Below, piece after piece: positions 2,736-38,293 of a stretch of 64,000 nucleotides of DNA. This stretch comes from Dictyostelium discoideum (Eukaryota), in NCBI GenBank assembly GCA_000004695.1, contig CM000154.2, forward strand, positions 4,576,001 to 4,640,000, read 5' to 3'. The notes under the pieces are model-generated. The model was not told the origin of the DNA, searched no databases, and was given only the letters and a program-made list of their open reading frames with translations. A program made the position numbers and the translations under genes. The number at the start of each line of letters is the position of its first letter. Position 1 is the first letter of the stretch.

Positions 2736-8404
<5,669 letters not shown>

Positions 8405-11506: not shown

Positions 11507-13901
11507 TTATTTTTTTAAATGATTTGAAATTATATGATTAATTGTATTTGAATGTTTTAAAAGGTAATCTAAACTATTATTTGATAATTTCTTAGGTAAA
11601 ATATCAATAATTGATGCATATGAACCAAATTGTGCAAATTTATTAAACTCTTCTTCATCTAATACTTTACATGCTAAAATAAATAAAGTTTCACTAAATT
11701 TAAATAAACCAATCTTTGAATTTTTATTTATAGATTTTAAATGGTCACAACAATCCATTGAAAACTGAATTTCATTATTTATAACTACATTAAATCTTTT
11801 TAAAAATTCTGAACTTTGATCATCACTACCATCACCACTATAAATGTTTAATTTTGATTGAATAATATCTAATTGTTTAAAAAATAAATCAACTCTTCTA
11901 ATTTGTAAACAAAATTCTAAATCTGAATTTAATGGTTTAGCTAAATATTCATAATTACTACCTATTTCTTCACCAATATTATTTTGGATTTCTTGATTTT
12001 CTTCATTTTCTTCATTTTCTTCATTATCATCATCATCATCATCATCATTACCATTATCACCATAATTAATATTATTTTGTTTATATTGAAATGAATATGA
12101 ATGAGATAATTTTTCAATTAATTTTTCTAAAATATCATCAATTGATAAACCACTTGAAAATAAATAATTAAATGAAAATAATTTTGGATTCAAGTATGAT
12201 GAAATATCATAAAATTTACCATCCTCTGGTGAATAACAACCACTATGATAATATGACATTTGTTGATAATCAAAAATCGTTTGAATATATGGTAAATCAA
12301 TTAAATATTTAGTAATAATTGGTGAAATTGAAATTAAATAATAAAATGATCTATATAAAGTATCTTTTAATACAATTTGATGATGATGATGATGATTTTT
12401 TGAAGATGTTGTACTAATTAACTTATTAAAATATTTAATTGTTTCAATTGATACATTTTCAATTCTTAATAAAACATCGTATAGAGTATTAATGATATTT
12501 AAAATTGAATTAATGTATTGTGTTTTTGTGGTTGTGGTTGTTGAGTCATCTTGATTTTTATCAATTGAATTTAATAATTCAATGAAAATATTTAAACATT
12601 TCTCTAAATTATCAATTAAACCATCAGTTTGTTTCATTTGTAAAAGTGTAGGTGGCTTTTTATCATTATGTGATGCTTGAAACATTGGAAAACTAAAATA
12701 TAAATTGATTTTATTAAATAATAATTCCGTTGGTATTAAATTTAAAATGAATTTAATTTTATTTAAACAGACATTCTCTATTGAATTTTTAAAAATTTCT
12801 GAATATATTATTGTATTTTCAATTAAATAATTGAAATCAATAGTACCATTATCGTTTCCATTTATAACAATATCACTTGATTCACCATTTTCAATTAAAT
12901 TAAAAACATTTTCATAAAAAACTGACATTAATCGTGATGGTATATTTTTATAATTTATACTTTTTAAATAATTTGAAAGTGTTATTAATTGGTTAATTGT
13001 CAATGGTGTTTCGATACCATCAATTTTTGATAACCTTTCATCTAATCTTAATTTAAAATCATAATCTTTCCAAAGATAATCGGTTGAAGACATTTTAGTT
13101 TTTGTTAAAATATAATCAATTGTTTCAATATCACATTTATGAAATGCAACTATTAATGGATATTCATACTCTTGATCAGTATAAAAAAATGATTTTGAAA
13201 ATTGTAATGATGAATTTGAATTTTTGAATATCTCTCTTGCATAATCAACAACCTTATATGATGTATATCTAATTGAATGAATTGAACTAATATATGAAAT
13301 ATTATTTGAAAAGGGACCTGATTTCTCAGTTTGTACAATCCAATCAACCGTATCATTATCATGTATTAAAAATGCACCCAATGAGCTATAATTATTTATA
13401 TCCATTAATCTATCATTTCTTTTCAATGGAAATAAATTTTTAAAAACTTTATTATCTGCTGGAATTGACGAAATTGCTTTTTTATATAGATTTTCATCAT
13501 CATCATCATCATATTTTAATGAGTTTATAAATGTGTATATCTTTCTATTAATTTCTGAAGTTGAAAATAATACACTATCTACACCATCAAGTGATGTAAT
13601 AATTTTTATAAATTCATAAGTTGATTCTAAATCTTTATTAATCGGTTTTAAGTATGTGTAATATTGATGATTTGATTTATAAATGATTTGATTAACTCCA
13701 TATCTATCATATCTAACTTTATTTAAAATTATTTTAAAAATATTTGAATTAAATGTTGATAATGAATAATATAATGCATTTGATATTTTTTCAGTATCAG
13801 TCATTAACTGTTCAATTATTTTATCATATTTATTTAAATAACTAATATAATAATTCTCTTTTGAAAATAGTTTATGTAATTCTTCAACTTTATTAAAATT
13901 T

Positions 13902-14344: not shown

Positions 14345-14601
14345 TATTTGATGAAATTTAATTATAAAATTTAACATTTCTCTATAATATTCATTATTTT
14401 TAACAAAAATATTATTCATATAATTTTTAAAATCATATAATAAATTCATTCTTGATAAATCTGATAATCTATGATTAATTAATAATTTTGTAATTTCTGA
14501 AATTATTAATTCTCTATCATTTGAATCGTATTGAAATAATTTAAAGATACCACATAATCCAATATCTAAATATTCATTTGATTTAATTTCACATTTTAAT
14601 A
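11507..14601 (-). CDS. Large hypothetical Asn-rich protein; the 5' end is lost in the assembly gap.
   Basis: The 980-aa ORF continues in frame upstream of its listed start through 14450-14601 (..LKCEIKSNEYLDIGLCGIFKLFQYDSNDRELIISEITKLLINHRLSDLSRMNLLYDF) and runs straight into the N-run. It carries polyN and acidic tracts and no recognisable domain. Confidence 0.5.
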
Positions 14602-14701
14602 NNNNNNNNNNNNNNNNNNNNNNNNNNNNNNNNNNNNNNNNNNNNNNNNNNNNNNNNNNNNNNNNNNNNNNNNNNNNNNNNNNNNNNNNNNNNNNNNNNN
14701 N
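14602..14701. other. Assembly gap (100 N).
   Basis: Run of n characters. Confidence 1.
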
Positions 14702-19211: not shown

Positions 19212-19567
19212 AGATGTTTTTAAAATTTTATTAATTGGTGATTCAGCAGTTGGAAAAACATCGTTATTATTAAGATTTGCAGTATGTATCTATTTTAAAG
19301 CATGAAAAAAATAAAAATAAAAATAAAAAAAATAAAATAAAATTCATGGTCAAATGGATTTAAAAAAAAAAAAAAAATATAAATATTAAATATCTTTTTT
19401 TTTTTTTAAAAAAAAAAAACTCAATTCATATATAGGATAACTCTTTTCAAGAGACTTCAGTAAATATGACTAGTGTCGATTATGTAAGTTTAGTTATCCA
19501 CTCTCAAATATTGTATTCTTCTTTCTTTCTCTCAAAAAAAAAAAAAAAATAAAAAAATAAAAAAATT

Positions 19568-19607
<40 letters not shown>

Positions 19608-20123
19608 CTTCCGCTCCTTAGCCAACGCTAACTTTTTTTTTTTTTTTTTTTTTTTTAGAAAAATAAAAATATAGTTATTGATGGTAGAACATTTAATTTA
19701 CAAATTTGGGATACAGCAGGACAAGAAAGATTTAGAACAATTACATCATCTTTTTATAGAGGAGCACATGGCGTTTTAGTTTGTTATGACGTAACAGATC
19801 AACTTACATATAATAACGTTAGATTATGGATGCAAGAAATTCAAAGATATGCAGTACTTGGCGTTAGTAGAGTTTTAGTTGGAAACAAATGCGATCTCGA
19901 AGATAGAAAATTGGTAAACACATCAATTGCAAGAGAATATGCCGATAGTCTTGGTATTCCATTCATGGAAGCTTCTGCTGCAACTGGTGTTAATGTTGAA
20001 GAGGCTTTCATGGCAATGGCAAATGAAATTTATAGAAATCATATGGGTGGTTCAAAACCTTCTGTTGTAAACCCAGGAAGTGGAGGTACCAGTAACACTG
20101 GTGGTAAAAAAAAATTTTGTTAA
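19212..20123 (+). CDS. Rab1-family small GTPase, at least 3 exons: join(19212..19281,19436..19483,19659..20123). The 5' end is unresolved.
   Basis: Exon A: (D)[22 protein letters not shown] (P-loop), GTATGT donor. Exon B: [22 protein letters not shown] donor. Exon C: [81 protein letters not shown], very similar to Rab1. Ends GGKKKFC*. The ATG at 19214 is out of frame by 1 nt with the P-loop exon. A TACTAAC (19122) and a TTTACAG acceptor (19205-19211) lie upstream. Confidence 0.7.
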
Positions 20124-23466: not shown

Positions 23467-23541
23467 TTTTTAAATAACTATGGTTTTGAAAATAATCTAT
23501 TGATAAATGATGAACCGACCACGCCTTTAAACTTTTTTGAT

Positions 23542-27525
<3,984 letters not shown>

Positions 27526-27658: not shown

Positions 27659-27944
27659 TTAATAACTACAATTAGAGACATCTACACACCAACAAAATCT
27701 AATTTTTTTATTTCTTATTTCTTGTTGTCTAAAAACAACAGGATCACTTATAATATTTCCTTTATAAAATTGAAGTGCCAATCCAATACCTCTTATAAAT
27801 GATTCTTGAATATTTATTGATTCTTTAGCTGACGTTTCAAAATAATGAATCCTACAAAAATAAGGATTGCTATAATTCCCATTATTAATTTTGTCTTGTT
27901 GTTTTCTACACCATTCATCAATTTTTTCTTTTGAAATAATTTCA

Positions 27945-28025
<81 letters not shown>

Positions 28026-28586
28026 TTATTTTTATTATTTATTAAATCTATTTTATTTCCCAAGATAATTATTGGAACATTTACATAATTTGATGATAAT
28101 AAGAAATCATTTAACCATTTTTCAAGATTTTCAAATGATGTTAAATTATTTAAATCAAAACATAAAAAACAACAATGAGCACCTCTATAAAATATATTTA
28201 AAGGATAATTTATATTATTCATTTTATTTGGAATATCCCAGATCTATATTTTAATATATACATTTAAATATTTTTAATTAATAATATTTGTTTTTGTTAT
28301 TAAATTGTTAAAAAAAAAAAAAAAAAAAAAAAATACAAACATTTAATATTATATGTTGACGTTTGAAATCAATTTCTTTTTGGTGTAAATAGTCCATTGG
28401 AGTTTTATTTTCATATTTTTTCCCTAAAAAACTTTTAATAATAGAACTCTTTCCAACTCCAGAGTCTCCACCTACAAAAATCTAATTAAATTATTTATTG
28501 TTAGTATTTCAAGGTAATTTTTTTAAAAAAAAAAATAATAATAATAACAGTTTGGCAACCTTTAAATTTATTTTTTTTTCATCCAT
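27659..28586 (-). CDS. Rab-like GTPase paralog A, 3 exons: complement(join(27659..28243,28341..28481,28560..28586)). Switch II is degenerate.
   Basis: Exon 1 MDEKKINLK. Exon 2 IFVGGDSGVGKSSIIKSF.. (intact P-loop). Exon 3 begins IWDIPNKMNNINYPLNIFYRGAHCCFLCFDL.., so DTAGQE is replaced by DIPNKM. Then LGNKIDL..YFETSAKESINIQESF. TACTAAC lies 18 nt before the exon-2 acceptor. Exon-1 donor is GTTGCC (weak). A polyN insert is encoded by (ATT)n. Confidence 0.6.
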
Positions 28587-28999
28587 TATTTAATAGCTTT
28601 AAAAATATTTTATTCAATTGTTAGTTATTAAAATATTTTTTCTTTTTTTTTTTAAATTATTTATAAAAAAAAAAAAAAAAAAAAGAGATCAGGTTTCTCT
28701 GGTGTGAAAATCTCCAAAAAAAAAATAAAAAATGAAAATAAGAAAATTAAATAACTGGCATTAAAATAAAGCAATTTTCATTTCCCAAATGAGTTACTTT
28801 ATTAATTTTTGATAATTTTTAATTTTATTGTGAGAAGTATTATTAATATTGATATTAATGGACCAAATTTTTATTTTATACTTTTATTTTTGAATTTATT
28901 TAATTACTATTCATTACTATTAATTAAAAATTCGAGTGATTTACAATATCTTCTAATTATGGTTTATTTTTTTATTTTATTTTTTTTATTTTTTTTTTT

Positions 29000-29789
29000 C
29001 TAACAACAATATCCAGGTTTTACTTCTTGAAGTGAATCAATTGCAGGTGTGGTTATTGGTGGTTTTTGATTTTTATTATAATGTTCCAAAGCTAATTTAA
29101 GAGCAGCATTATATGATTCTGTAATATTTTGAGAAAACTTTGCAGATGTTTCAAAATAATGAACTCTATCAATAATTCCTTGATCTTCAATATTTTTACA
29201 CCATTGTTCAATTCTTTCTTTTGATATTGATTTATCAGTTCTTGGAATATCTTTTTTTGTACCTATTAAAACAAATGGAACTTTTCCAATACAGAACTTT
29301 CTAGCTTCGTCCATCCATTTATCAAGATTTTTAAATGATTTTTCATTGTGAATATCAAAACAAAGTGTATAACAATTTGACCAACGATAATAAATTGGGC
29401 TTAGGCCATTAAAACGTTCTTGACTACAGGTATCCCAAACCTTGTCATTATCATAATTATTATTATTATTATTATTTATTCCATTTTTTTTTTTTTTTTA
29501 ACATGTTGTTATTTATTCGTTTTTATGAGTTACAAACTTACATTTAAAATGACAGGTTCATTTTCAATGGTTAGGGTCTTTGAATAAAAAGATGGTGAAA
29601 CTGTGCACTCATTAATTTCATATTTTCCAGTAACAAAATTATTAAATACAGATGTTTTGCCTACATAACTGTCTCCAAGAGTAATAATCTTAAAAAATTT
29701 AAAAATAAATAGTTTAATTTTATATATAAAAAAATTAGAAATTATAAAAACTAATTAAATTATAATACCTTTAAACTTTTTTTACTCAT
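29000..29789 (-). CDS. Rab-like GTPase paralog B (G-type), 3 exons: complement(join(29000..29440,29542..29688,29769..29789)).
   Basis: MSKKSLK | [18 protein letters not shown]...EPVILN | [59 protein letters not shown] and GTAAGT donors. Switch II reads DTCSQE. C-terminal CC prenylation motif. Confidence 0.65.
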
Positions 29790-30074: not shown

Positions 30075-30114
<40 letters not shown>

Positions 30115-30123
<9 letters not shown>

Positions 30124-30770
30124 TGTTCCAACTTTGACTTCTTCCGGCGGACCAATTGGACGAATAATTGAGATATATTTAACTATACTATAATGTTCCA
30201 AAGCTAGTTTTGCAGCAACATTATATAATTCTGTAACATTTTGAGAAAGTTTTGCAGATGTTTCAAAATAATGAACTTTATCTATAATTCCTTGATCTTC
30301 AATATTTTTACACCATTGTTCAATTCTTGCCTTTGATATTGATTTATCAGTTCTAGGAATATCACTTTTTGTACCTACTAAAACAAATGGAATATTTCCA
30401 TAGCAGTACTTTATAATTTCATCCATCCACTTTCCAAGATTAATAAATGATTCTTCATTGTGAATATCAAAACAAAGTGTATAACAATTTGCACCACGAA
30501 AATAAGGTGGACTAAATGCTTGAAAACGTTCTTGACCACAGGTATCCCAAACCTAATACAATATAATTTATAATTAATAAAACAGTTTTATTTTATTTTT
30601 TTGAATGAATTATACACTTACCATTAAAAACACATGTTTATTTTCAACCTTTAATTCCTTTATAAAATAGTCAGGTCCAATTGAGGGTGGCCTATTATAT
30701 CGATATTCTCCATTAACATAATGATAAAAGAGAGATGTTTTACCAACATTACTGTCTCCAAGAGTTATAA

Positions 30771-30810
<40 letters not shown>

Positions 30811-30894
30811 AGAAAAAAAAAAATTTCAATAAAATAAGAAATTAATATATAATATATTAATCAATACCTTTAACATTGTTTTTTCTTCTTTCAT
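30115..30894 (-). CDS. Rab-like GTPase paralog C (G-type), 3 exons: complement(join(30115..30552,30622..30771,30868..30894)).
   Basis: MKEEKTMLK | [25 protein letters not shown] | [53 protein letters not shown]. Phases are consistent with the ORF-track frame. Confidence 0.65.
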
Positions 30895-30956
30895 TTTTAA
30901 ATATTATATTATATATTAATGATTAAGTTTAATTTTTAAAAAAAAAAAAAAAAAAA

Positions 30957-31160
30957 GGGTTTAAATGATATTTTTTATTTTTAATTGTTGAGAGAGCCAA
31001 GATCTCTTTTTTTTATTTACAAAATTTAGAAAAAAATAAAAATCTGAAATATTTGGAATGTTGTTTGGATATTTCTATTATTTTTAAAAATAGAAAACAA
31101 CACCCATGAAAATCATAATTTGAACTTTTATTATTATTATTATTATTATTTATTTTTAAA
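30957..31160. repeat. Conserved roughly 190-bp element; copies at 30957-31160, 33062-33250 and 35649-35850.
   Basis: gggtttaaatgatattttttatttttaattgttgagagagccaagatctc...gaaaacaacacccatgaaaatcataatttgaactttt recurs three times with over 90% identity. Each copy sits immediately 3' of an F-type gene and 5' of a G-type gene or its remnant. Confidence 0.8.
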
Positions 31161-31518
31161 ATTCTACCACAACCCTAATATCCCATTCGATGATGCAGGG
31201 TGGAAATATTTATTGAATTTTTCTGTTTATTTTTACACCATTGTTCGATTCTTTCTTTTGAAATTGATTTTTCAGTTCTTTCAATATCACTTTTTGTACC
31301 TATTAAAACAAATGGAACTTTCTCATCAACTAATGTATTTGCTTCTAATTCTTTTATCCAATAAATAAGATTATTAAATGATTGTTCATTATGAATACCA
31401 AAACAAAGTACACAACAATCTACATCTCTATAATATATTTTACTATCACCGAATGCACTACCATGTGTATTCCATAACTTTTCATTTTTATTGATTTATT
31501 ATTATTACTATCCATTTT

Positions 31519-31555
<37 letters not shown>

Positions 31556-31700
31556 CAAATTGGTACTTACTTGAAATGATACTGTTTCATTATCAATGAT
31601 TATCTCCTTGTAGTGAAAATCTAGTGCAATTGAGTAACCCCATTGAAAAATAGGTCTACCCATATATAATTCTTAATAATCGATAATTTACCCACCATTC
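31120..31700 (-). pseudogene. Rab-like paralog D: truncated, rearranged copy of the F-type gene.
   Basis: Nearly identical to 33260-33920 over exon 2 and the 5' half of exon 3. About 150 bp of the exon-3 3' part is deleted and replaced by unrelated sequence (aaccctaatatcccattcgatgatgcaggg...), and the frame is not maintained. Confidence 0.6.
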
Positions 31701-32061
31701 TATCACCAATTGTTATTATCTTGTAAAAAAAATGCATATGCTTTAATACTTATATCTGATTTTAATAAGAATTTTTTTTTTTTTTTTTTAAAATACCTTT
31801 AAAAGTTTTCTTTTATTATCCATCACTATTATCTGATTAATTTGAAACTTGAAAAAAAAAAAAAAAAAAAAAAAAAAAGTGAGAGAAAGAAAAGTAAAAA
31901 AAGTCAGAGTAAGAAAAGCATGCTTTTGAACTTTTTTTTTTTTATTTTTTTTTTTTTTTTGACCACAGAGAAAAAAAAAAGAAAAAAAAAATTTGGTTGT
32001 TCACCACCAACTTTTTGCTTCTATAATTTATTTTTTTAAAAAATCAATAATAATAATAATG

Positions 32062-32093
<32 letters not shown>

Positions 32094-32717
32094 TCAACAA
32101 CTTGATGATTTGATATTATTGTTATTTGATATTTCCAGTGTTGGATTTAATTTTGATTCATTTAATTTTTGCATTGAATTAAAATAATTTAAAGCAAACT
32201 TTGAAATGATATTGAATGGCTCTTTAATATTTTTTGAATTCTTTGCAGATGTTTCAAAATAATGAACTTTATCTATAATCCTTTGATCTTCAATATTTTT
32301 ACACCATTGTTCAATTCTTTCATTTGATATTGATTTATCAGTTCTAGGAATATCACTTTTTGTACCTATTAAAACAAATGGTGGTGATAATTTCTCACTT
32401 TCCAAACCATTCTCTAAACATTTTGAATGTAATTCCGTTATCCATTTATCAAGATTTTTAAATGATTCTTCATTATGAATATCAAAACAAAGTACACAAC
32501 AATTTGCATTACGATAGAAATGTCTATTTAAACTGGTAAATCTTTCTTGACCTGCGGTATCCCAAAAATGGTATCCAACAAGTTCATCATCGATCATTAT
32601 CTCTTTATAAAATAAATCAAAAGTTGATGGACAAGTATAAATACCAAATTTTCTACCTGCGAATTCATTAAATATTGCTGTCTTTCCAGAATTATAATCA
32701 CCAATCATTATTATCTA

Positions 32718-32767
<50 letters not shown>

Positions 32768-32856
32768 AAATTAAAAAATGTTAACTTTTATAGTATAATA
32801 TAAAAATAAAAATAAAAATCACATACCTTTAATTTCTTATTTGCTTTATATTCCAT
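32094..32856 (-). CDS. Rab-like GTPase paralog E (E/I-type), 2 exons: complement(join(32094..32714,32827..32856)). Canonical motifs.
   Basis: MEYKANKKLK | [90 protein letters not shown]. Ends ..SSSC*. GTATGT donor; acceptor AATAG at 32716..32715. Confidence 0.65.
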
Positions 32857-33259
32857 TTTTAAAAATATGTATGTATGTGTGTGTGAGATAAAAATAAAAT
32901 AAAAATAAAACCAATCAAGATTTTTTTTTTTTTTTTTTTTTGGGTTGTTTTTTTTTTTTTTTTTTTTTTTATTATTAATTTTTTTTATCTAAACATTATT
33001 TTTTGTTCATTCATTTTTAAATATTATATATAATAAAAAAAAATAAAAAAAATAAAAAAAAGGGTTTAATTATTTTTGATTGTTGAGAGAGCCAAGATCT
33101 CTTTTTTTTTATTTACAAAATTTGAAAAAAATAAAAATCTGAAATATTGGAATGTTGTTTGGATATTTCTAATTATTTTTAAAAATAGAAAACAACACCC
33201 ATGAAAATCATAATTTGAACTTTTTTTTATTATTATTATTATTATTTATTTTTAAAATC

Positions 33260-33721
33260 CTACCACCAACAAATTCCTTTTGGTTTTTCAGGTTCAATTG
33301 AAATATTTATTGAATTTTTCTGTTTATTTTTATATTGATTTAATGCTATTTTTACTATAGTTTCATAAGCTTCAATAATGTTTGTTGATAATTTTGCAGA
33401 AGTTTCAAAATAATGAATTTTTTCTTTTACAATACCTTGATCTTCAATTTGTTTACACCATTGTTCGATTCTTTCTTTTGAAATTGATTTTTCAGTTCTT
33501 TCAATATCACTTTTTGTACCTATTAAAACAAATGGAACTTTCTCGTCAACTAATGTATTTGCTTCTAATTCTTTTATCCAATAAATAAGATTATTAAATG
33601 ATTGTTCATTATGAATATTAAAACAGACTACACAACAATCTACATCTCTATAATATATTTTACTATCTTCATATGCACTACCATGTGTATTCCATAACTT
33701 TTTATTATTATTATCCATTTT

Positions 33722-33753
<32 letters not shown>

Positions 33754-34053
33754 CAAACCAAATTGGTACTTACTTGTAATGATACTGTTTCATTATCAAT
33801 GATTATCTCTTTAAAGTGAAAATCAAATGGAATTGAGTTACCCCATTGAAAAAAAGGTCTACCCATATAATTCTTAATAATCGATAATTTGCCAACCATT
33901 CTATCACCAATTGTTATTATCTTTTTTTTTTTTACATCATTGTTATGAAAAAAAAAAAAAAAATTGCATATGTTTTCTTATTAATATCTGATTTTAAAGA
34001 ATTATTTTTTAATTTTAAAAAAATACCTTTAATAGTTTTCTTTTATTATCCAT
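33260..34053 (-). CDS. Rab-like paralog F (F-type), 3 exons: complement(join(33260..33697,33774..33920,34027..34053)). P-loop and switch II are degenerate.
   Basis: MDNKRKLLK | [18 protein letters not shown] (GxxxxGK-L, the T/S is lost)..ETVSLQ | [27 protein letters not shown] (DTAGQE becomes NTHGSA)..[29 protein letters not shown] donor at 33773..33772 and acceptor AAAAAG at 33699..33698, so the track's MDNNNKK start falls inside the intron. Confidence 0.55.
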
Positions 34054-34326
34054 CACTATTTATCTGATTAATTTGAAATTTTTTAAAAAAAAAAAAAAGT
34101 GAGAAAGTCAAAAAATGAGCAGAAAAGTAGAAAAGCTTCAAACTTCTGTTTTTTTTTTCATCACACAACAAAAATAAAAAACCAACAAAAAAAAAAAAAA
34201 AAAAAAATAAAAAAAAAAAAAAATTTATTTACCAATCTTTCTTTGAAAATATTTTCAAAGTTGATAATAAAAAAAAAAAAAAAAAAATCATCATCATTGA
34301 TCAATTTATTTTAATTGGTAAAAAAA

Positions 34327-34410
34327 AGTGATATTCCAAGAACTGATAAATCAATATCAAATGGAAGAATCGAACAATGGTGTAAAAATATTGAAGATCA
34401 AGGAATTATT
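34327..34410 (+). pseudogene. Inverted fragment of a Rab-like gene (plus-strand [29 protein letters not shown]).
   Basis: Reverse complement of the conserved exon-3 segment found in paralogs E, G and I. Only about 85 bp, with no flanking exon. Confidence 0.6.
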
Positions 34411-34449
34411 GATATATATATTTTTTTTTTTTTTTTTTTTTTTTTTATT

Positions 34450-34640
34450 ATAAATATTTTTAAAGAAAGATTGTAATTTAATTTTAAAGTTGACGAGGTT
34501 GTTTTTCATATTCATGGGCTTGTAGGATCATTTCAAATTTACCAAATTCTATTTTACTAATAATGCTTCATGTTCTTGCCAACAATCAAAAATTTCTTTC
34601 CAGCTTCATCACCCAGTGTATTGACATTTTTCTTCTTTTA
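34450..34640 (-). pseudogene. Fragment of the HDDC2 gene (copy of about 37790-38000 with internal deletions) lying inside the Rab array.
   Basis: agttgacgaggttgtttttcatattcatgggcttgtaggatcatttcaaattt... is near-identical to agttgatgaggttgtttttcatattcgtaggcttgtaggatcatttcaaattt... in the intact gene. Two deletions; not translatable. Confidence 0.6.
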
Positions 34641-34751
34641 TTATTATGATTGATATTAATGGAGCAAATTTTTATTTTATTTAATAATTATTTATTACTA
34701 TTAATTAAATATTCAAGTGATTTACCATCATCTTCTAATTAATGGTTTATA

Positions 34752-34782
<31 letters not shown>

Positions 34783-34783
34783 A

Positions 34784-35606
34784 TTAACAACAATGTCCAG
34801 GTTTTACTTCTTCAAGTAAAACAATTGCAGGTGTAGTAATTGGTGGATTTTGATTTTTATTATAATGTTTGAAAGCTAATTTAGCCGCAGCATTATATGA
34901 TTCTGTAATATTTTTAGAAAGTTTTGAAGATGTTTCAAAATAATGAACTTTATCTATAATTCCTTGATCCTCAATATTTTTACACCATTGTTCAATTCTT
35001 GCCTTTGATATTGATTTATCAGTTCTAGGAATATCACTTTTTGTACCTATTAAAATAAATGGAATACTTTCAAAACAGTACGTTTTAGTATCGTCCATCC
35101 ATTTTTCAAGACTGTCAAATGATTTTTCATTATGTATATCAAAACATAGTGTGTAACAATGTGCACCACGATAATAAGCATAACCTAATGAATGAAAACG
35201 TTCTTGACCAAATGTATCCCAAACCTAATATATTATAATTATTTTATTTTTTATTATTATTATTATTTTTTTTTTTTTTTTTTTTTTTTTTTTCAATTTA
35301 CCACTTACCATCATAGACACATGCTGATTTTCAATCATTAGTTCCTTTGAACAAAAATCAATTGAGCATGACCTATGATATATAAATTTCCCATACATAT
35401 AATTATAAAAGAGAGATGTTTTACCAACATTACTGTCTCCAAGAGTTATAACCTAAAAATAAACAAAAATAAAAAAATATAATAAAAAAAAGAAAAAAAA
35501 AAAGAAAATTAATTTTAAAAATAAATAAAAATAAGAAAAAAAAAAAAAAAAGAAATTAATATATACTTATTTACAATACCTTTAACATTATTTTTTGTTC
35601 ATTCAT
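34784..35606 (-). CDS. Rab-like GTPase paralog G (G-type), 3 exons: complement(join(34784..35224,35309..35452,35580..35606)).
   Basis: MNEQKIMLK | [25 protein letters not shown] | [59 protein letters not shown] and GTAAGT donors. Confidence 0.65.
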
Positions 35607-35823
35607 TTTTAAATATTATATATAATAAAAAAAAAAAAAAAAAAAAAAGGGTTTAAATGATATTTTTTTTATTATTTTTAATTGTTGAGAGAGCCAAGAT
35701 CTCTTTTTTATTTACAAAATTTGGAAAAAAAAAAAAAAAAAAAAAAAATTTGAAATGTTGTTTGGATATTTCCAATTATTTTTAAAAATAGAAAACAACA
35801 CCCATGAAAATCATAATTTGAAC

Positions 35824-35855
<32 letters not shown>

Positions 35856-35868
35856 TATTTTTAAAATC

Positions 35869-36491
35869 CTACCACCAACAAATTCCTTTTGGTTTTTCAG
35901 GTTCAATTGAAATATTTATTGAATTTTTCTGTTTATTTTTATATTGATTTAATGCTATTTTTACTATAGTTTCATAAGCTTCAATAATGTTTGTTGATAA
36001 TTTTGCAGAAGTTTCAAAATAATGAATTTTTTCTTTTACAATACCTTGATCTTCAATTTGTTTACACCATTGTTCGATTCTTTCTTTTGAAATTGATTTT
36101 TCAGTTCTTTCAATATCACTTTTTGTACCTATTAAAACAAATGGAACATTTTCATTAAATAATGACATCCAATGATTAAGATTATTAAATGATTGTTCAT
36201 TATGAATATTAAAACAGAGTACACCACAATCTACATCTCTAAAATATATTTTACTATCATCGAATGCACTACCATGTGTATTGAAAAGCTTTTTATTATT
36301 ATTATTATCCATTATAATTTTTTTTTTTTTTTTTTAAACCAAATTGGTGCTTACTTGTAATGATACTGTTTCATTATCAATGATTATATCCTTAAAGTAA
36401 AAATCTAATGGAATTGAGTTACCCCATTGAAAAAAAGGTTCACCCTTAAAATTCTTAATAATCGATAATTTACCAAGAAAAGCAGAAAAAC
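35869..36491 (-). pseudogene. Rab-like paralog H (F-type): P-loop destroyed and exon 1 absent; probable pseudogene.
   Basis: Exon 3 (35869..36288) is intact and F-like ([27 protein letters not shown]..). Exon 2 encodes ..[15 protein letters not shown].. (the G-x4-GK P-loop is gone). No MxxKxxLK exon-1 homolog lies upstream. The upstream sequence (36575-36760) is a copy of the E/I-type 3' end. Confidence 0.5.
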
Positions 36492-36539
36492 CTTCAAAAA
36501 AAAAAAAAAAAAAAATTAAAAAATCAACTGGTTGGTATT

Positions 36540-36575
<36 letters not shown>

Positions 36576-36671
36576 TATTGGTCACCACCAGGTTGTTTCT
36601 TCTGTAATTTATTTTTTTATTATTATTACTACTATTATTATTAGATATTTCCAGTTTTGTAATTAATTGAA

Positions 36672-37402
36672 TCATTTAATTTTTTGTATTGAATTAGAAT
36701 AATTTAAAGCAAGCTTTGTAATGGTATTGAATGGCATTATAATATTTTGAGAAAGTTTTGCAGATGTTTCAAAATAATGAACTTTATCAATAATTCCTTG
36801 ACCTTCAATATTTTTACACCATTGTTCAATTCTTTCATTTGATATTGATATATCAGTTCTTGGAATATCACTTTTTGTACCTATTAAAACAAATGGTGGT
36901 AACAACTCCATATTTTCCAAACCGTTCTCTAAACATTTTGAATGAAATTCGTTCATCCATTTATTAAGATTTTTAAATGAATCTTCAAAGTGAAGATCAA
37001 AACAAAGTACACAACAATTTACATCACGATAGAAAGATTTATTTAAATTGGTGGTAAATTTTTCATGACCGGCAGTATCCCAAATATTGCATCCAACAAG
37101 TTCATTATCAACCATTATCTCTTTATAAAAGTAATCAAAAGTTGATGGATTTGTATAACTACCAAATTTTCTGCCTACAATTTCATTAAATATTGCTGTC
37201 TTTCCAGATCTATAATCACCAAGCATTATTATCAAAATAAAAAAAAAAAAAAAAAAAATGTTAAAACATATTTTAAATTAAAAATATGTTTTACTTTTAT
37301 ATAAAATAAAAATAAAAATAAAAATAAAAATAAAAATAAAAATAAAAATAAAAATAAAAATAAAAATCACGCATACCTTTATTTTCTTATTTGCTTTTTC
37401 CA
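36672..37402 (-). CDS. Rab-like GTPase paralog I (E/I-type): complement(36672..37226), with a possibly orphaned 5' exon at 37376..37402.
   Basis: [32 protein letters not shown] (catalytic Gln is His)..[27 protein letters not shown]. Ends ..IQKIK* with no C-terminal Cys. An exon-1 homolog (MEKANKKIK + GTATGC) is present, but the acceptor that reads TAG|ATAATAATG in E reads TTG|ATAATAATG here. The (AAAAAT)n repeat at 37300-37350 is intronic or upstream. Confidence 0.55.
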
Positions 37403-37720
37403 TTTTTAAATTAATATGTATTTACGCATGTGTATGTGTGTGAGAGAGTTGAAAATAAAATAAAAATAAAACTAAAAAAATCAAGATTTTTTTTTTTTTT
37501 TAGATATTTTTTTTTTTTTATTTATTTATTTATTGTTGAAAATAAAAATTTAGGTTAATTAACACCTAAATTTTTATTTTTTTTTATTTTTTTCTTTTCA
37601 CATTTAAATTAAATTAATATTAATTTATTCAAATTCTATTTTTGTATTTACAATTTTATCTAAATTTTTTTTTTTTTTTTTTTTCTATTATTTATTATTA
37701 TTATTTTAAAAATTATTTAT

Positions 37721-38293
37721 TTATTTTCTATCACTTTCTAATTGAAGTGCAAGTGATTTAAATAATGGATGATGGAATTTCCCTCTAGTTGAATCAAAGA
37801 AAGATTGTAATTTAATTTTATTTTCAAGTTGATGAGGTTGTTTTTCATATTCGTAGGCTTGTAGGATCATTTCAAATTTATCGAAATCTTTTACTAATAA
37901 TGCTTCATTGGTTTTACAATCTTCATATTCTTGCCAAAGATCGAAAATTTCTTTTCCAACTTCACCACTTAGTGTATTGGTAATTTCAATGATTGCATTC
38001 TTTTCTAATTGATATTTTTCTTCTTTGGTAATTTTATCATGTGGTGTGAAATCACCAACTAATGATTCACCTAAATCATGTACTAATGCCATCTTTATAA
38101 TTTTCATCTTGTCAATCTCTTTACCATCTTCACCAATTAATTCCTTTTTATCTAAACACATTCCCATCATTGCCATACGATACATATGATCTGATACTGA
38201 TTCTGGTAATTCTACTCCATGATTAACCCAACCAGTTCTTTTTAATGTTTTTAATTTACCACAAATTTTAAAAAATTCTAAATAATTACTCAT
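37721..38293 (-). CDS. HD-domain 5'-deoxynucleotidase, HDDC2/YfbR family.
   Basis: ..[94 protein letters not shown].. aligns along its whole length with human HDDC2 ([27 protein letters not shown]...ALVHDMAECIVGDIAP...). Single exon. Confidence 0.85.
   Translation of the reverse strand: [190 protein letters not shown]

Follow-up and report, generated by a model that had tools for sequence, protein, structure and literature searches.

A lineage-specific tandem array of Rab-family genes beside HDDC2 in Dictyostelium discoideum, probably shaped by birth-and-death evolution

The 64,000-nucleotide stretch of Dictyostelium discoideum DNA analysed here (hereafter the window; positions 4,576,001 to 4,640,000 of the forward strand of contig CM000154.2, GenBank assembly GCA_000004695.1) contains the annotated RabN/RabK/RabL/RabM small-GTPase gene cluster of strain AX4, which adjoins the gene HDDC2. 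With a probability of roughly 0.88, this cluster is best understood as a lineage-specific tandem Rab-family array under birth-and-death evolution. The homology blocks, breakpoints, differences between strains and species, mosaicism and conversion tract that bear on this reading are direct observations. The genes themselves are already annotated, and literature searches found no paper naming RabK1, RabN1 or RabM, nor one whose title or abstract concerns the array; hence, the breakpoint-level reconstruction may be new in its detail, though it is an example of a familiar kind.

The window has a G+C content of about 20% and long (AAT)n and (CAA)n coding runs. Gene models were built with explicit GT..AG splice sites, and every array gene, labelled A to I by increasing coordinate, lies on the minus strand. 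Along transcription, i.e., from high to low coordinates, the array is headed by the single-copy parent gene HDDC2, an intronless gene at 37721..38293 (minus strand) coding for a 190-amino-acid 5'-deoxynucleotidase (exact match Q54FK1; Pfam HD_3, E=2.6e-49). It is followed by I (RabN2), H (RabK2), G (Q1ZXB8), an HDDC2 fragment, an inverted exon-3 piece, F (RabK1), a stub consisting of a G-type promoter and exon 1, E (RabN1), the pseudogene D, C (RabL), B (RabM) and A. Exact database matches to AX4 proteins were obtained for RabM, RabL, RabN1, Q1ZXB8, RabK2, RabN2 and HDDC2, while the 203-amino-acid model of F belongs to the RabK1 cluster and is identical to KAM9948362.

A repeated unit of three Rab-like genes

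Self-BLAST of the window between 27 and 39.5 kb recovered all the homology blocks described in the initial annotation, with E-values far beyond chance, and together with the single unit of the sister species (see below) bears out the proposal that the array consists of a multigene unit repeated in tandem. C and its flank (30087-31235) match G and its flank (34756-35941) at 79% identity (E=0); D matches F at 85% (31232-31901 versus 33452-34134) and H at 82%; E matches I at 80% (32114-32976 versus 36630-37537); and the stub plus F (32992-33895) matches exon 1 of G plus H (35584-36476) at 89%. Additionally, B matches G at 78% (28838-29761 versus 34639-35515) in a block extending about 150 nucleotides past the stop codons, in agreement with the suggested homology of their 3' flanks, and the inverted piece (34301-34414) matches every exon-3 core at 86-93% (E=1e-25 to 3e-41).

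Read along transcription, these blocks define a unit of one N-type, one K-type and one X-type (G/L-like) gene. I, H and G constitute unit 1, F and the stub belong to unit 2, and E, D and C form unit 3, with B lying distal to all three. An intact unit measures about 2.9 kb, rather than the 2.5 kb first estimated, with start-to-start spacings of 2220 and 2591, and what was taken for a 190-bp conserved element is the spacer and promoter extending from the K-type stop to the X-type start. Homology that is collinear through introns and spacers, one unit in the outgroups, hybrid genes and strain-to-strain polymorphism in copy content (AX4 and the genomes L001-L004 introduced below) together form the pattern left by segmental duplication or unequal crossing-over. 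The single unit of the sister species, the intron and intergenic homology and the L/M hybrid structure of G support the earlier proposal that such processes brought HDDC2 into the array, which deletions and an inversion have remodelled.

Alternatively, the genes might have been duplicated one by one, with the three-gene unit being a coincidence of order. This would accord with the mixed affinities of the K-type copies, the 5' part of F being closest to D and its 3' part identical to H, and with the presence of B (RabM) as an extra X-type gene outside the units. However, the homology is uninterrupted across gene borders and spacers (the stub plus F against G exon 1 plus H; C against G with their upstream spacers), with the spacer homologies in the self-BLAST continuing past the gene borders. 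Further, the single-unit outgroups have the identical N-K-X order, and a sharply bounded conversion tract accounts for the mixed affinities of the K-type copies. Gene-by-gene duplication is hence scarcely credible, and multiplication of a whole multigene unit is preferred.

An independent assembly reproduces the array

AT-rich and homopolymer-rich repeats are difficult to assemble, and the repeats, remnants and inverted piece could in principle reflect collapse, expansion or mis-joining in the AX4 reference, a concern already raised in the initial annotation. However, an independent chromosome-scale assembly (GCA_054883475.1, referred to as L008) is collinear with window positions 39500-27000 at 99.4% identity; the 12.5-kb alignment contains 4 mismatches and 71 gap positions, the latter being consistent with homopolymer-length differences between the assemblies. 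It agrees with the reference in gene order and remnants, and both the HDDC2 fragment and the inverted piece are 100% identical to those of AX4. Because of this collinearity over 12.5 kb, the array can be considered real. Further, at 79-89% identity the units differ too much to be collapsed or expanded, and most junctions are common to related strains. Misassembly was therefore rejected, its probability being close to negligible.

Several units in the D. discoideum complex, one in its sister species

The syntenic locus was taken from seven further genomes and annotated by tblastn; the strains, which are only 85-92% identical at the array, were compared by blastn. L001 and L002 are D. discoideum strains, L003 and L004 are D. 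cf. discoideum genomes, and the remainder represent D. firmibasis, D. citrinum and D. dimigraforme. HDDC2 is followed by N, K and X in D. firmibasis, by N, K, X and A in D. citrinum, and by N, K, a 5-kb insertion and X in D. dimigraforme. The corresponding order in L001 is N2, K2, G, K1, G2, an HDDC2 5' fragment, N1, K3, L, M and A. L002 resembles L001 in layout, with K2 broken by an inversion (exon 2 being inverted), and L003 and L004 are without N2 and differ further in layout. One N-K-X unit is therefore present in the three sister species, and several units in all five genomes of the D. discoideum complex, each in a different configuration. This comparison, which had been suggested for dating the duplications, indicates that the triplication arose in the D. 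discoideum lineage and that the array has been changing since.

The L003 array extends past gene A, and this genome has younger HDDC2 5' pieces (19404-19675 and 14502-14604), which lie after gene A and between N1 and K and share about 90% identity with the parent; therefore, HDDC2-containing duplication recurred in the L003 lineage. Two insertions were also observed. In L001, about 0.8 kb of sequence with no counterpart in AX4 or the other loci is inserted between HDDC2 and RabN2 (6900-8020); the gene of 160 amino acids called in it has no Pfam hit. The approximately 5-kb insertion of D. dimigraforme, between its K-type and X-type genes (L006, 12646-17462), contains two called genes without Pfam hits and may be a mobile element.

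Relics of HDDC2 at the unit junctions

The deleted copy of part of HDDC2 reported near 34450-34640 was confirmed, with 34462-34623 matching 37796-37979 at 78.5% (E=3e-41). The pseudogene fragment occupies 34462..34638 on the minus strand, corresponds to nucleotides ~258-505 of the parent coding sequence and is 80.7% identical to it over the aligned columns, with an 18-nucleotide deletion, a possible deletion of about 32 nucleotides at the 5' edge and small indels. Immediately preceding it, behind G, is an M-type 3' flank (34639..34783, minus strand), recognized by its BLAST homology to 28838-28999, the 3' flank of B. The spacer between G2 and N1 in L001 and L002 comprises an M-type 3' flank, the HDDC2 5' flank, nucleotides ~1-160 of the HDDC2 coding sequence with the ATG changed to ACG, and the upstream region of N1; the same 5' fragment (nucleotides ~1-160) precedes N1 in L003 and L004 too. 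HDDC2 relics are hence seen, across the strains, at both internal unit junctions, in syntenic order and preceded by the M-type 3' flank. The AX4 fragment is probably the remnant of an HDDC2 copy that headed unit 2. Because the other strains keep the non-overlapping HDDC2 5' flank and coding nucleotides ~1-160 at the next junction, the duplicated block probably carried most or all of HDDC2. Capture of HDDC2 was thus correctly recognized at the outset, but more than a piece, probably most or all of the gene, was taken along.

This conclusion has to be weighed against two partial captures, a 3' piece and a 5' piece at different junctions, with no unit ever containing a whole HDDC2. Such a history is in keeping with the lack of any single genome with both fragments at one junction, and the younger 5' pieces of L003 (~90%) do attest to recurring HDDC2-containing duplication. 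On the other hand, both fragment types have internal deletions and adjoin the sequence expected of a complete copy, namely the M-type 3' flank upstream and the upstream region of an N-type gene downstream; two captures also need more events than the whole-copy model, and stepwise erosion fits what remains. Two partial captures are therefore unlikely, if still worth consideration beside the duplication of a block with most or all of HDDC2.

It is highly improbable that the fragment is instead an independent insertion from outside the duplicated unit, whether a retrocopy, a transposon capture or filler from double-strand-break repair. The intronless HDDC2 makes intron content uninformative with regard to a retrocopy, an A-run follows the AX4 fragment, and a small inverted duplication nearby is typical of repair or template-switch events. 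However, A-runs are ubiquitous in this genome and hence uninformative, and the fragment lies just where a unit should be headed, after an X-type gene with an M-type 3' flank and before N/K genes. In four other genomes, the next unit has a second fragment at the corresponding position, and in L001 and L002 this fragment extends into the 5' flank of HDDC2 and has ACG in place of the start codon. A processed pseudogene was accordingly rejected, given the syntenic location of the fragments at unit junctions and the extension of the L001/L002 copy upstream of the start codon. The usual targets of Dictyostelium TRE retroelements are tRNA genes. The window contains no tRNA genes, and no transposon sequence turned up in the analyses, which did not include a repeat-library screen.

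The inverted piece that follows the HDDC2 fragment is a non-K-type copy of the exon-3 core on the plus strand (34301..34414), 86-93% identical in reverse orientation to all the exon-3 cores. Its inversion had been correctly described; its length is 114 nucleotides and not 85 bp. It is bracketed by an 81% inverted repeat (34220-34287 and 34428-34485), in which the 34220..34287 arm, on the plus strand, aligns in inverted orientation with the end of the HDDC2 fragment (81% over 68 nucleotides). This inverted copy is also present in L001 and L002, which further retain the distal 40 nucleotides of the inverted exon-3 piece at the equivalent site. A stretch of about 380 nucleotides is missing from these strains; it corresponds to AX4 34736-34358, which contains the remainder of the M-type flank, the 3' fragment of HDDC2 and the larger part of the inverted piece. 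A specific insertion of this segment in AX4 was considered and rejected, since L001 and L002 retain the inverted end of the HDDC2 fragment and the 40 nucleotides, and its absence from them is a derived deletion. For the same reason, the inversion and the HDDC2 3' fragment predate the split of AX4, L001 and L002. The inverted piece is probably all that is left of the N-type gene of unit 2.

Hybrid X-type genes, gene conversion and relative timing

Mosaicism was assessed by sliding-window identity of G, and of G2 from L001, against RabL and RabM. All three AX4 genes concerned are intact, minus-strand, three-exon genes whose products end in CC: G (34784..35606; exons 35606-35580, 35452-35309 and 35224-34784; exact match to the Rab GTPase Q1ZXB8) is the X-type gene of unit 1, C (30115..30894; RabL, also RARE7L; exact match Q54FK7) that of unit 3, and B (29000..29789; RabM; exact match Q54FK8) the distal X-type gene. 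Between the promoter and the end of exon 2, G shares 75-93% identity with RabL (82-93% over most of exon 2) and 63-76% with RabM, while from the C-terminal tail into the 3' flank it is 85-90% identical to RabM and 47-79% to RabL; the 3' flank by itself is 85-88% identical to that of B and 47-53% to that of C. The switch from L to M falls within the exon-3 core, where all copies share 92-97% identity, and G2 of L001 is likewise an L-5'/M-3' mosaic. G thus has the structure that unequal recombination, or conversion, between neighbouring L and M genes would leave.

A different kind of exchange is evident among the K-type genes. The 5' part of their exon 3 groups by position, AX4 H being nearest to K2 of L001 (94%) and to the first K gene of L004 (93%). 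AX4 F and H are 88.9% identical in this 5' part and 100% identical in the 3' part. The identical tract (33247..33538 in F, ~36147-35856 in H, minus strand) covers 295 aligned positions and spans the stop codon, with flanks that differ by 8-20%; upstream of it, F is closer to D. This tract represents a recent gene conversion with sharp boundaries.

Synonymous divergence (Ks) and the ratio of nonsynonymous to synonymous divergence (Ka/Ks) were computed by the Nei-Gojobori method. For HDDC2, the Ks between AX4 and the four other D. discoideum-complex genomes is 0.02-0.12, and that between AX4 and D. dimigraforme, D. citrinum and D. firmibasis is 0.28, 0.40 and 0.50, respectively. Among the paralogues, it is 0.19 for N1/N2, 0.20 for K1/D, 0.29 for G/L and 0.35 for L/M; the value of 0.06 for K1/K2 is affected by conversion. 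The duplications hence predate the strain radiation, and their age is similar to or lower than that of the splits from the sister species. Only the AX4-lineage lesions and the conversion tract count as recent. The term had initially been extended to the duplications, for which it is inappropriate in light of a paralogue Ks of 0.19-0.35 versus a strain Ks of 0.02-0.12.

Intact, truncated and decayed copies in AX4

RabN1, RabK1, G, RabL, RabM and A are intact in AX4. Beyond the X-type genes described above, E (RabN1), the N-type gene of unit 3, lies at 32094..32856 on the minus strand (exons 32856-32827 and 32714-32094; exact match Q54FK5; Pfam Ras), and F (RabK1), the K-type gene of unit 2, at 33260..34053 on the same strand (exons 34053-34027, 33920-33774 and 33697-33260; Pfam Ras, E=1.3e-30), its product ending in CWW.

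The remaining copies are damaged in distinct ways. I (RabN2), the N-type gene of unit 1 (36672..37403, minus strand; exon 1 37403-37377, exon 2 ~37232-36672; annotated as the 184-amino-acid Q54FK2), has lost its intron-1 acceptor by deletion, reading TTTTG|ATAATAATG in AX4 versus AAATAG|ATAATAATG in L001 and L002, and its C-terminal tail is frameshifted relative to E. H (RabK2), the K-type gene of the same unit (35869..36474, minus strand; annotated as the 147-amino-acid Q1ZXB7), was aligned with the E-D region and with the N2-K2 junction of L001. A deletion of about 250 nucleotides took its promoter, exon 1, intron 1 and the first ~27 nucleotides of exon 2, leaving no P-loop, while K2 of L001 is complete (198 amino acids). 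Exon 2 of H now directly abuts the 3' flank of I, a sequence that always precedes K-type genes. The E/I-type 3' sequence next to H was hence rightly identified, but it was not acquired as a replacement, as the simple deletion of ~250 nucleotides explains the arrangement.

D, the K-type pseudogene of unit 3 (31164..31823, minus strand), was interpreted by aligning it with F and H and with K3 of L001, which is intact. It is an F-type copy with an internal deletion, as first thought; that deletion measures 123 nucleotides rather than ~150 bp, lies in exon 3 and removes the ETSAK segment, and it is accompanied by a +2 frameshift in exon 2, a 17-nucleotide insertion at the start of exon 3 and a scrambled C-terminus. 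The unit-2 X-type gene (G2) survives as a promoter and partial exon 1 at 32992..33254 (minus strand; ATG at 33014), as established by aligning it with G, with C and with G2 of L001 and L002. At 33014-32992 it keeps 23 of the 27 nucleotides of exon 1; the gene body is deleted and so is the splice donor, and of the first-exon remnant and donor region reported at ~32985-33025 only the former endures. L001 and L002 have an intact X-type G2 where AX4 has this stub, with AX4 being without an equivalent of L001 ~12210-13166, a stretch that includes the HDDC2 5' fragment as well. In L004, G2 was lost through a deletion joining the K 3' flank directly to the HDDC2 5' fragment. A deletion shared with AX4 was rejected because the breakpoints differ.

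Other strains do not have these AX4-lineage lesions: G2 is intact in L001 and L002, K2 is full length in L001, K3 is intact, and both L001 and L002 keep the N2 acceptor. RabN2 (184 amino acids, starting MLGDY) and RabK2 (147 amino acids), as entered in the database, are hence probably products of decaying copies. The RabK2 entry starts inside what is intron 2 in RabK1. Full-length counterparts of 196 (RabN2) and 198 (RabK2) amino acids occur in another D. discoideum strain, the 196-amino-acid form being found in a second strain as well.

A reconstruction of the array's history

The following course of events can be proposed, its order and recombination mechanisms being inferential. The ancestral state would be that kept in D. 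firmibasis, D. citrinum and D. dimigraforme, i.e., HDDC2 with one N, one K and one L/M-like X gene, and gene A in some. In the ancestor of the D. discoideum complex, X would already have become L plus M. A DNA-level segmental duplication may then have joined the M 3' flank to the HDDC2 5' flank, copying at least about 4 kb of the HDDC2-N-K-X block, and L x M recombination in the upstream copies would have yielded the hybrid G-type gene. A further round, plausibly of unequal crossing-over between units, could have produced three units. Surplus HDDC2 copies would subsequently have been eroded by deletion to non-overlapping scraps, and the unit-2 N gene would have shrunk to a small inverted scrap within a short inverted duplication. 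In the AX4 lineage, deletion has left the unit-2 X gene with its promoter and exon 1, RabK2 has lost its 5' end and RabN2 its acceptor, and the unit-3 K gene has gained the frameshift and the 123-nucleotide deletion. Gene conversion is still homogenizing parts of the copies, as in the 295-nucleotide RabK1/RabK2 tract. The net outcome in AX4 is one intact N (RabN1), one intact K (RabK1) and three intact X genes (G, RabL and RabM).

Several points weigh against this account. The order of events is a parsimony reconstruction, and the one X gene present in D. citrinum, like that in D. firmibasis, is unassignable to L or M, leaving the placement of the L/M split before the block duplication uncertain. 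The 3' fragment of AX4 and the 5' fragment of the other strains are at different junctions, and a whole HDDC2 in every unit is something that we infer. Conversion blurs divergence, making the Ks dating rough, and some of the high-scoring segment pairs span short introns while the exons are short.

GTPase motifs and a divergent K-type family

The Pfam Ras domain (PF00071) is detected in RabL (E=3e-42), G (2e-39), RabN1 (8e-37) and RabK1 (1e-30). A G1 P-loop of the form GxxxxGK[ST] is present as GDSNVGKT in G and L, GDSYVGKT in M and GDYNSGKT in N1. The K-type P-loop, seen in RabK1 as GDRMVGKL, is degenerate, with leucine in place of Ser/Thr. Similarly, the G3 motif DxxGQ takes the form DTCGQ in L, DTFGQ in G and DTAGQ in N1, with DTCSQ in M and DTAGH in AX4 RabN2; the K-type counterpart is NTHGS (switch II WNTHGS), with neither the Asp nor the catalytic Gln. 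The G4 guanine-specificity motif NKxD is replaced by TKSD or TKKD, with Thr for Asn, in every N, K and X copy (e.g., 32350-32364 and 30361-30375), gene A alone having NKID; by sequence, the N, K and X genes are therefore atypical members of the Ras superfamily. As to the double-Cys prenylation motif of the Rab subfamily (CC, CXC or CCXX), the C-terminus carries CC in G, L and M, a single Cys (SSSC) in N1 and CWW in the K-type, and the tail is lost in AX4 RabN2.

Comparable K-type loci are found in the other genomes (L005 12026-12692, L006 11961-12643 and L007 12085-12720). The D. firmibasis K orthologue is canonical, with GDRGVGKS and WDSHGQ. The GKL form and the loss of the catalytic Gln characterize D. 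dimigraforme, D. citrinum and the D. discoideum complex, with the first two being intermediate. The K-type Ka/Ks against the outgroups is ~0.32-0.35, indicating purifying selection, and the proteins retain their unusual CWW ending. A tentative and rather doubtful reading of these sequence features is that the K-type genes (RabK1, K2 and K3) might be a young family of functional pseudo-GTPases that is still forming. Were this true, the array would document how a Rab turns, step by step, into a protein independent of nucleotides, different copies having stayed intact in different strains.

Relationship to known arrays and to existing annotation

Arrays subject to unequal crossing-over and gene conversion include the globin clusters, with their Lepore-type hybrids, and the opsin and major histocompatibility complex arrays, and the mechanisms are textbook knowledge. 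The present array resembles them in its multigene unit, differences of copy number and content between strains, hybrid genes, bounded conversion tracts and pseudogene debris. It differs in comprising Rab-like genes of an amoebozoan, with very AT-rich spacers and recombination deduced from the sequence, and in that its unit carried an unrelated neighbour, HDDC2, whose extra copies have all been pseudogenized. Lineage-specific Rab expansions are reportedly known in protists, as in the work of Klopper et al. of 2012 and among the Rabs of Paramecium. The Rab paralogues of the array are comparably species-specific, fast-diverging and outside the conserved core set; however, those studies are reportedly family-level surveys or concern whole-genome duplicates, while the array is a single local case resolved to its breakpoints.

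With respect to the annotated AX4 Rab cluster, the window proteins are identical to the database entries, yet RabK2 (147 amino acids) and RabN2 (184 amino acids), entered as proteins, are truncated relative to their full-length counterparts in other strains. Also present in AX4 are the X-type stub, the pseudogene fragment of HDDC2 and a K-type gene in decay. For knock-out or tagging work in AX4, only RabN1, RabK1, G, RabL and RabM look intact, and gene content at the array varies among strains. The locus thus offers a breakpoint-resolution teaching example of bystander-gene duplication, a hybrid gene, conversion and independent decay in sister lineages. It does not change the current understanding of genome evolution, being ordinary tandem gene-family turnover.

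Additional features in and around the array

Gene A (27659..28586, minus strand), the last cluster member, is Rab-like but more divergent; it contains a poly-Asn insert and the above-mentioned NKID motif, which is canonical. It was delineated by a gene model and has an orthologue in D. citrinum; the exact model is without an identical entry in the protein collection searched.

At 36334-36675 on the minus strand, an open reading frame of 113 amino acids begins with an ATG overlapping the RabN2 stop and runs through the spacer, where a T-run encodes poly-Phe, in frame into RabK2 exon 2. It is probably a chance open reading frame, although an N2-K2 read-through transcript across this segment is conceivable. 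Downstream of the RabN1 and RabN2 coding sequences (32030-32094 and 36590-36610), a conserved "...TGGTGGTGA" motif resembles the K-type CWW-stop (TGTTGGTGGTAG) and may be a relic of an older 3' end shared by the N and K genes.

Beyond gene A, a large flanking gene on the plus strand (23500-27525, a 1341-amino-acid open reading frame) has very long poly-Asn and poly-Gln tracts, and its orthologue borders the array in all the species examined.

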